NCBI RefSeq assembly: GCF_006345805.1
Contig: NC_043000.1
Span: 158,162,001-158,226,000, forward strand
Reading direction: 5' to 3'
DNA from: Octopus sinensis
Lineage: Eukaryota
DNA length: 64,000 nt
Shown: positions 33,376 through 33,978 of the stretch, one piece after another
How positions within the stretch are numbered: position 1 is the first letter of the stretch
Layout of the letters: the number at the start of each line of letters is the position of its first letter
The notes under the pieces: generated by a model
Seen by the model: the letters and a program-made list of their open reading frames with translations, nothing else
Told to the model about the DNA's origin: nothing
Databases searched by the model: none
Position numbers and translations under genes: made by a program

Positions 33376-33978
33376 TATATTGTATAAAGGGCATTATTAC
33401 ACATAAATGCCACACGCTAAGATGGACATAAGTCATTACTACCAAAATTTAACGAATCATACCAAATGCAGCTCTCGAAGCAAGACATTTAAAAAACTGA
33501 ATTTAGTTCTATATCACCTGTGATTTCGCAATTAACGTATTAAATACGTCTTTTGTTCATCAGTAGAACAGGTTCTGAACACATCATAAATAAACATAAC
33601 CAACATACCTAACGAAGCCAAACAGACATCTGCTTCCCTCAGCGAAGCACATGGAAATGTTTATTCATCATATACCGAATATATGATGAATAAACATTTC
33701 CATGTGCTTCGCCGAGGGAAGCAGATGTCTGTTTGGCTTCGTTAGGTATGTTGGTTATGTTTATTTATGATGTGTTCAGAACCTGTTCTACTGATGAACA
33801 AAAGACGTATTTAATACGTTAATTGCGAAATCACAGGTGATATAGAACTAAATTCAGTTTTTTAAATGTCTTGCTTCGAGAGCTGCATTTGGTATGATTC
33901 GTTAAATTTTGGTAGTAATGACTTATGTCCATCTTAGCGTGTGGCATTCATGTGTAATAATGCCCCCTATACAATATA
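33376..33978. repeat. Near-perfect 299-bp-arm hairpin between (TA)n arrays
   Basis: Arms 33376-33674 and 33680-33978, loop CCGAA, 4 mismatches counted by eye. Confidence 0.97.
33785..33848 (+). ncRNA. Type I hammerhead ribozyme (mirror copy on - at 33506-33569)
   Basis: GTTCTA-CTGATGA-aCAA...TTGc-GAA-ATCAC-ag-GTGAT-A-TAGAAC; stems I and III perfect; AUA cleavage triplet; A-C in place of G-C at the base of stem II. Confidence 0.8.

Follow-up and report, generated by a model that had tools for sequence, protein, structure and literature searches.

A near-perfect hairpin in Octopus sinensis DNA as a probable head-to-head insertion of a 482-nucleotide non-coding hammerhead repeat

The window, defined here as the whole 64,000-nucleotide stretch of Octopus sinensis DNA that was analyzed, is rich in microsatellites and transposons. 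It contains an inverted repeat with arms at positions 33376–33674 and 33680–33978. The arms are 299 bp each and are separated by a 5-nucleotide loop (33675–33679). They pair at 295 of 299 positions and are 98.6% identical. The four mismatched pairs (33387/33967, 33388/33966, 33405/33949, and 33641/33713) all place an A on the left arm opposite a C on the right arm. These mismatches are A·C in RNA of the + strand and G·U in RNA of the − strand, and the chance of such agreement on one strand is 1 in 8.

The features of the locus are listed in Table 1. In the coordinates of the 482-nucleotide repeat unit described below, the locus reads (left to right) (TA)n, an inverted copy from 424 to 1, the apex, a direct copy from about 472 to 296, and (TA)n. 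The 5-nucleotide loop is unit sequence of the right copy (positions ~472–482), joined by way of a short TA overlap. The flanks outside the (TA)n arrays are not mirrored. An earlier note on this DNA described a 600-bp near-perfect hairpin between (TA)n arrays, with a complete hammerhead in each arm. The hairpin geometry stands, but the left arm does not adjoin its (TA)n array, as approximately 125 nucleotides of the element (33254–33375) lie between them. Each arm does contain the identical motif; the two are on opposite strands, however, and a transcript would carry one hammerhead and its antisense.

Table 1. Features of the inverted-repeat locus, in window positions.
Feature	Position	Strand	Basis
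(TA)n target array, left part	33035..33254		TRF and sequence
Inverted copy, unit ~1–424, stops at 3' end B	33254..33674	−	blastn against natural 482-nt unit from L021, 90%
"Tail", unit ~297–424, on left arm only	33254..33375	−	blastn, sequence comparison
Type I hammerhead motif, inverted copy	33506..33569	−	Descriptor search
Head-to-head junction	33673..33679	+	Sequence read directly
Direct copy, unit ~1–296, stops at 3' end A	33680..33978	+	Sequence comparison to unit
Type I hammerhead motif, A10.1·C11.1, predicted cut after 33842	33785..33848	+	Descriptor, copy alignment
(TA)n target array, right part	33974..34077		TRF

Other repeats were identified in the window. At 32820–33036, a short repeat distinct from the element carries a minimal hammerhead-like motif and ends directly in the left (TA)n array. 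This repeat was matched in 23 fetched loci, with several copies in locus L183, and is probably another Penelope-like element (PLE) end, with the element inserted into its (TA)n. A decayed piece of PLE reverse transcriptase (RT) lies at 50061–50681 (−) and has relatives at approximately 80% or less. The sequences at 3845–4300 (+), 24347–25087 (−), and 38610–39155 (−) are also decayed and are presumably another PLE-like piece and two pieces of mariner/Tc1-like transposase.

The element is dispersed in the genome. When the right arm was searched against the genome (2.72 Gb), there were 2,244 first-look candidates, which is not a copy number, and the best 40 were scored. A 22-nucleotide pattern from the 3' half of the hammerhead had 118 exact matches in the genome and 0 in a reversed control. 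From these, 102 distinct loci were mapped: 47 from two similarity searches (13 duplicates removed) and 55 from 100 of the 118 pattern matches. The loci were chosen by arm or hammerhead similarity; they are not a random sample, and the proportions given here are not genome-wide estimates.

Natural tandems have a period of 482 nucleotides, in which the end of the unit joins its start (a circularly permuted unit). The longest stop-free frame in the unit is 79 codons, and the element is therefore considered non-coding. The unit fold has a z value of −5.4, and none of 100 shuffles folds as well. The copies are truncated at the 5' end and partially tandem. Long copies pass from unit position 482 directly into position 1, and the longest arm is 826 nucleotides, under two units. 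Some of the copies of 1.5 to 1.7 units (L020/L021, L059, and L011/L060) hold two hammerheads, and no full dimer or multimer of the unit is present in the 102 loci. The copies nearest to the locus arm are 96.6% identical to it, compared with 98.6% between the arms themselves, which upholds the earlier description of a non-coding fold-back insertion tied to PLEs or retrozymes, and a fairly young one. A search of the openly accessible literature listed no paper on this family.

The 102 loci can be sorted into 58 head-to-head inversions and 44 direct loci. The outer 3' ends (n = 160) stop at unit position ~296 (end A) in 78 cases and at ~424 (end B) in 63, and the two positions are 128 nucleotides apart in the unit. 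TA-rich sequence follows 116 of the 141 A or B ends. Forty-two of the inverted loci pair an A end with a B end, none pairs A with A or B with B, and the remaining 16 have at least one end elsewhere. When the ends were shuffled, like pairs averaged 20.8, and 0 of 100,000 shuffles were free of them.

The junctions of the 58 inverted loci consist of 31 that overlap, 6 that are blunt, 17 with 1 to 10 extra nucleotides, and 4 with more. One of the 31 overlaps, at L009, is an alignment artefact. L160 is two pieces that are 648 bp apart. The apex lies within 22 nucleotides of symmetric in 16 of the 58 loci, against 5.4 expected, with a threshold that was set after looking and with the window locus included. 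This excess suggests a shared stop point or partial fold-back. Larger palindromes exist in the family, at L131 (797 bp at 97%), L123 (784 bp), and L047 (899 bp). Hammerhead cores are present in both arms at 8 of 15 loci picked for checking, the window locus included, and one of the other seven has its cores in the 797-bp palindrome. With more than half of the family inverted and at least seven other loci with cores in both arms, the locus itself is ordinary for the 482-nucleotide family, and its earlier treatment as special is not supported. The 5' ends show no enrichment at the predicted ribozyme cut (3 of 113, against 4.0 expected). The cut site is spanned by 120 of the 160 arms, a figure inflated by locus selection.

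The family palindromes at L131 (G000:C4:18857589-18861889), L159, and L151 are near-perfect over 797, 376, and 347 bp, respectively, with loops of 0 to 2 nucleotides. The fold point of L159 is the exact start of its hammerhead core.

The + strand motif has a stem I of 6 bp, a core at 33791–33797, a GAAA sequence at 33827–33830, and a stem III of 5 bp with a 2-nucleotide loop. A10.1 (33798) opposes C11.1 (33826). A type I descriptor applied to the 64-kb window matched the two arm motifs only, and it located the hammerhead reported earlier at 33785–33848, with its 2-nucleotide stem III loop. The Rfam hammerhead models gave no match at E ≤ 1 in the window, at E ≤ 10 in a short stretch, or for L038. 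The Rfam output held only sub-threshold miRNA and snoRNA matches, caused by the hairpin. Because Rfam gave no match, the hammerhead call is based on the descriptor, on conservation, and on covariation among copies.

The full core is kept in 36 of 55 distinct aligned copies, and the motif is thus conserved among copies, as the earlier note had supposed. In 51 distinct rows, 92.6% of cells are paired and five pairs, in stems I and II, are changed on both sides. Stem III is nearly invariant. Three of 500 shuffles attain the two-sided pair count, and slid controls are far lower; this was counted among related copies, whose kinship inflates the counts, and the figure is not a probability.

The 10.1–11.1 pair is A-U in 19 of the 51 rows, G-C in 6, G-U in 6, and unpaired or other in 20. 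The window motif lacks the canonical G10.1–C11.1 pair and has A·C instead. This A·C pair is no private lesion, being present in 14 of the 36 full-core copies (A-U is present in 15). It is the mark of a subfamily that continued to spread. Most copies with G-C have a U4C change. In one subfamily (L043, L050, L051, and L041), G10.1–C11.1 occurs together with U4C in the core, and stem I has a U·G pair.

Stem III alone has a predicted energy of 0 kcal/mol (no fold), while its self-duplex has −11.2 kcal/mol (ViennaRNA). In the monomer, the core is predicted to pair with stem III. Cleavage as a dimer, which the earlier note had proposed, gains some support from the self-duplex value, but the two arms cannot dimerise in cis because they are on opposite strands. 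Dimer- or protein-assisted cleavage has been described for PLE hammerheads (PMC4209133; PMC11167929), and the predicted behavior of stem III fits cleavage of this kind. The covariation suggests that the hammerhead is kept for the RNA cycle of the element, in which it would self-cleave, perhaps as a dimer or with protein help.

RNA that reads through the locus is predicted to form a hairpin of −515 kcal/mol that buries the ribozyme motif. The description of the ribozyme as locked in dsRNA is accurate for such read-through transcripts, but not for a transcript that starts near the apex. The suggestion of an siRNA or ADAR substrate found no backing here, and the private changes of family copies have no ADAR-type asymmetry (45 A>G and 64 T>C, both 0.0037 per site). 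A 260-nucleotide contig covers the hammerhead in one run that was guessed to be RNA, and it was not counted as evidence.

The unit was compared with the PLE loci of four families in a search for a parent. These were an intact 784-aa family, an old decayed family (12 loci), the relatives of the L023 fragment (24 loci), and the relatives of the L012 fragment (19 loci). No sequence shared with the unit above chance was found in the loci of the four families. The first family, which we take to be Neptune from its motifs, has intact 784-aa ORFs with RT and GIY-YIG. It has two 3' ends that run into (TA)n, and inverted copies. In the 784-aa ORF, the RVT_1 domain is above the cut-off and the GIY-YIG domain (E = 0.002) is below it.

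The 784-aa family (L093, L095–L097, and L099–L103; for example, G000:C8:31704000-31713999) is very young, with a tandem unit of ~4.4 kb and many copies at 99–100% protein identity. Its two 3' ends are ~38 nucleotides apart, and inverted 5' copies are present. By eye, its terminal repeat has a minimal hammerhead-like motif in which U3:A8 replaces C3:G8. A third PLE family (L197–L215) has two 3' ends of its own, ~45 nucleotides apart, and a hammerhead-like motif that by eye is apparently U3:A8 too.

PLE protein matched 5 of the 102 element loci in a tblastn search, none as a recurring junction. In two of the 102 loci (L012 and L023), PLE sequence is fused in sense to the 5' end of the element with no microsatellite between. 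Each fusion is a one-off, since the unit was found in 0 of 24 loci related to the L023 fragment and in 0 of 19 related to the L012 fragment. These fusions could be template switches and carry little weight as evidence. At L012 (1045–1800), an inverted 3' end and a direct GIY-YIG fragment of the third PLE family are fused to a 482-nucleotide element between (TA)n arrays, and this composite is possibly one chimeric event. At L023 (1–1800), unit position 360 is directly fused to a decayed PLE ORF that retains part of the 3' UTR. A fragment beside L030/L032 was rejected as a fused partner, as a microsatellite separates it from the element.

The hairpin is, in all likelihood, a single head-to-head insertion of a short non-coding hammerhead repeat. 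The repeat is likely a non-autonomous PLE (retrozyme type), and integration itself probably produced the mirror arm. An RT/GIY-YIG protein of a PLE, supplied in trans, would nick both strands of a (TA)n array. Synthesis of one cDNA would start at site A and that of its counterpart at site B, after which microhomology or partial fold-back would join the cDNAs by their 3' ends. At the window locus, the join would have fallen near the same unit position in both copies, which would leave a near-perfect palindrome tailed on one side only. The A-primed copy would have run ~10 nucleotides past the B-primed copy and been joined via the short TA overlap, with the 5-nucleotide loop left over. In published work with a purified PLE protein, both strands of the target are nicked and extended, two internal RNA start sites for RT delimit the tail, and ribozyme cleavage is unnecessary in vitro (PMC11167929). 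The templates of insertion appear to have been uncleaved or re-ligated, with which the lack of enrichment of 5' ends at the predicted cut is consistent. Pure snap-back of the right-copy cDNA was considered as the sole mechanism and rejected because it leaves unit 297–424 on the left arm unexplained. As for the hairpin itself, it is most likely a by-product of integration that serves no selected function. Our verdict is that the element is a new family of the non-autonomous PLE/retrozyme kind, and that the hairpin is explained by a known integration signature.

Other explanations were weighed against this one. The copies could be pLTR stumps left by 5' truncation of an autonomous PLE that is still to be found, and not a self-standing non-coding family. 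PLE insertions are published as heavily 5'-truncated (PMC8557442), and a rare full-length parent could escape genome searches in which only the best 40 candidates were scored. We consider this unlikely, as long copies re-enter unit position 1 after position 482 (up to 826 nucleotides), where an ORF would be expected, and the few tblastn matches share no recurring junction. It is more doubtful still that an assembly error or a folded-back read produced the palindrome, or that a single copy was rearranged later. Long palindromes are troublesome for assemblers, and among the contigs listed from four sequencing runs none spans the window apex, an absence that is uninformative. The arms nevertheless differ at four sites and stop at two different biological ends of the element, the flanks past the (TA)n arrays are unmirrored, and 42 loci obey the A/B rule. 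Contigs of two public runs also contain, at a depth of 17 to 20, other joints of the family that are exactly mirrored (33449/33905, 33451/33903, and 33496/33858).

The predicted stability of the read-through RNA, the presence of all four mismatches as A·C on the + strand RNA, and the report of small RNAs from PLE copies in a rotifer (PMC3846280) would suit a selected regulatory RNA locus, either an endo-siRNA precursor or an ADAR substrate with a silenced ribozyme. This is very improbable, since palindromes of equal or greater length exist elsewhere in the family (L131, L123, and L047) and private changes have no excess of A>G over T>C. Any small RNAs produced would reflect host defence and not a dedicated function. 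An inverted repeat flanked by TA also resembles a DNA transposon, either a MITE or a fold-back type, that bears terminal inverted repeats and has inserted at TA, a reading to which we assign next to no probability. The ends are unequal, the copies are 5'-truncated and partially tandem, and a ribozyme motif is present; the variable apex positions and the 44 of 102 loci without inversion largely refute this reading.

The head-to-head insertion of a non-coding repeat can be extended to a broader claim, which we hold tentatively and with slightly less than even confidence. A retrozyme-type RNA with the full Penelope signature, a strict one-A/one-B rule, and a 128-nucleotide tail may be direct genomic evidence for a dimeric PLE protein that inserts animal retrozymes and primes both strands of the target from a pair of RNA sites that are obligatory and non-equivalent. 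The 482-nucleotide unit would then be a ready substrate for reconstituting PLE inversion. The origin of PLE inversions is named as unresolved in PMC8557442. The qualitative statement of a tail at a single end here becomes a count, 42 unlike to 0 like pairs, which limits how such inversions can arise. The link between retrozymes and PLEs has so far consisted of co-occurrence and pLTR similarity (bioRxiv 10.64898/2026.07.22.740005). Here, the non-coding hammerhead unit itself bears the PLE insertion scar. Such insertions seed long palindromes, and dsRNA would result if these were read through.

The element can be compared with several known systems. Published PLE insertions favor (TA)n and combine an inverted 5' copy with a tail at a single end (PMC8557442), and their head-to-head junctions bear palindromes (PMC3846280). 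The element resembles EN+ PLE units (PMC8557442, PMC3846280, PMC11167929) in its partial tandems, head-to-head inversion, palindromic junctions, one-end tail, (TA)n targets, and type I hammerhead upstream of the 3' ends. It differs in having no ORF, in the long stems II and III of its hammerhead, as opposed to the minimal form, and in that no parent was found in the four PLE families. Its tail of ~128 nucleotides exceeds the published 30–40, which is a typical value, and the difference indicates a variant, not an exclusion. The non-autonomous PLEs of Chlamys, such as MRC1, are likewise non-coding PLE derivatives with pLTRs and head-to-tail copies (PMC8557442). Their 3' sequence is generally shared with autonomous families, a kinship not found for the element in the four PLE families compared, and PMC8557442 describes their clade as one without canonical hammerheads.

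Animal non-LTR retrozymes (PMC7229834; bioRxiv 10.64898/2026.07.22.740005) are, like the element, non-coding, low in GC, highly structured, and dispersed, with a type I hammerhead and head-to-tail junctions. The unit of 482 nucleotides is longer than the retrozyme RNAs of ~170–400 nucleotides in PMC7229834, and the range given in the preprint is 51–972 bp. The main text of PMC7229834 has 0 occurrences of the word "inverted", and bioRxiv 10.64898/2026.07.22.740005 has one, within the title of a reference. The element also differs from retrozymes in that its arms are under two units, full multimers are absent from the 102 loci, and more than half of these loci are inverted.

In L1 twin-priming inversions, two primed cDNAs are joined by microhomology, and the two pieces do not overlap. 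The element is similar in its two primed cDNAs and microhomology join. It differs from L1 twin priming in that both arms hold the same sequence and both starts are fixed.
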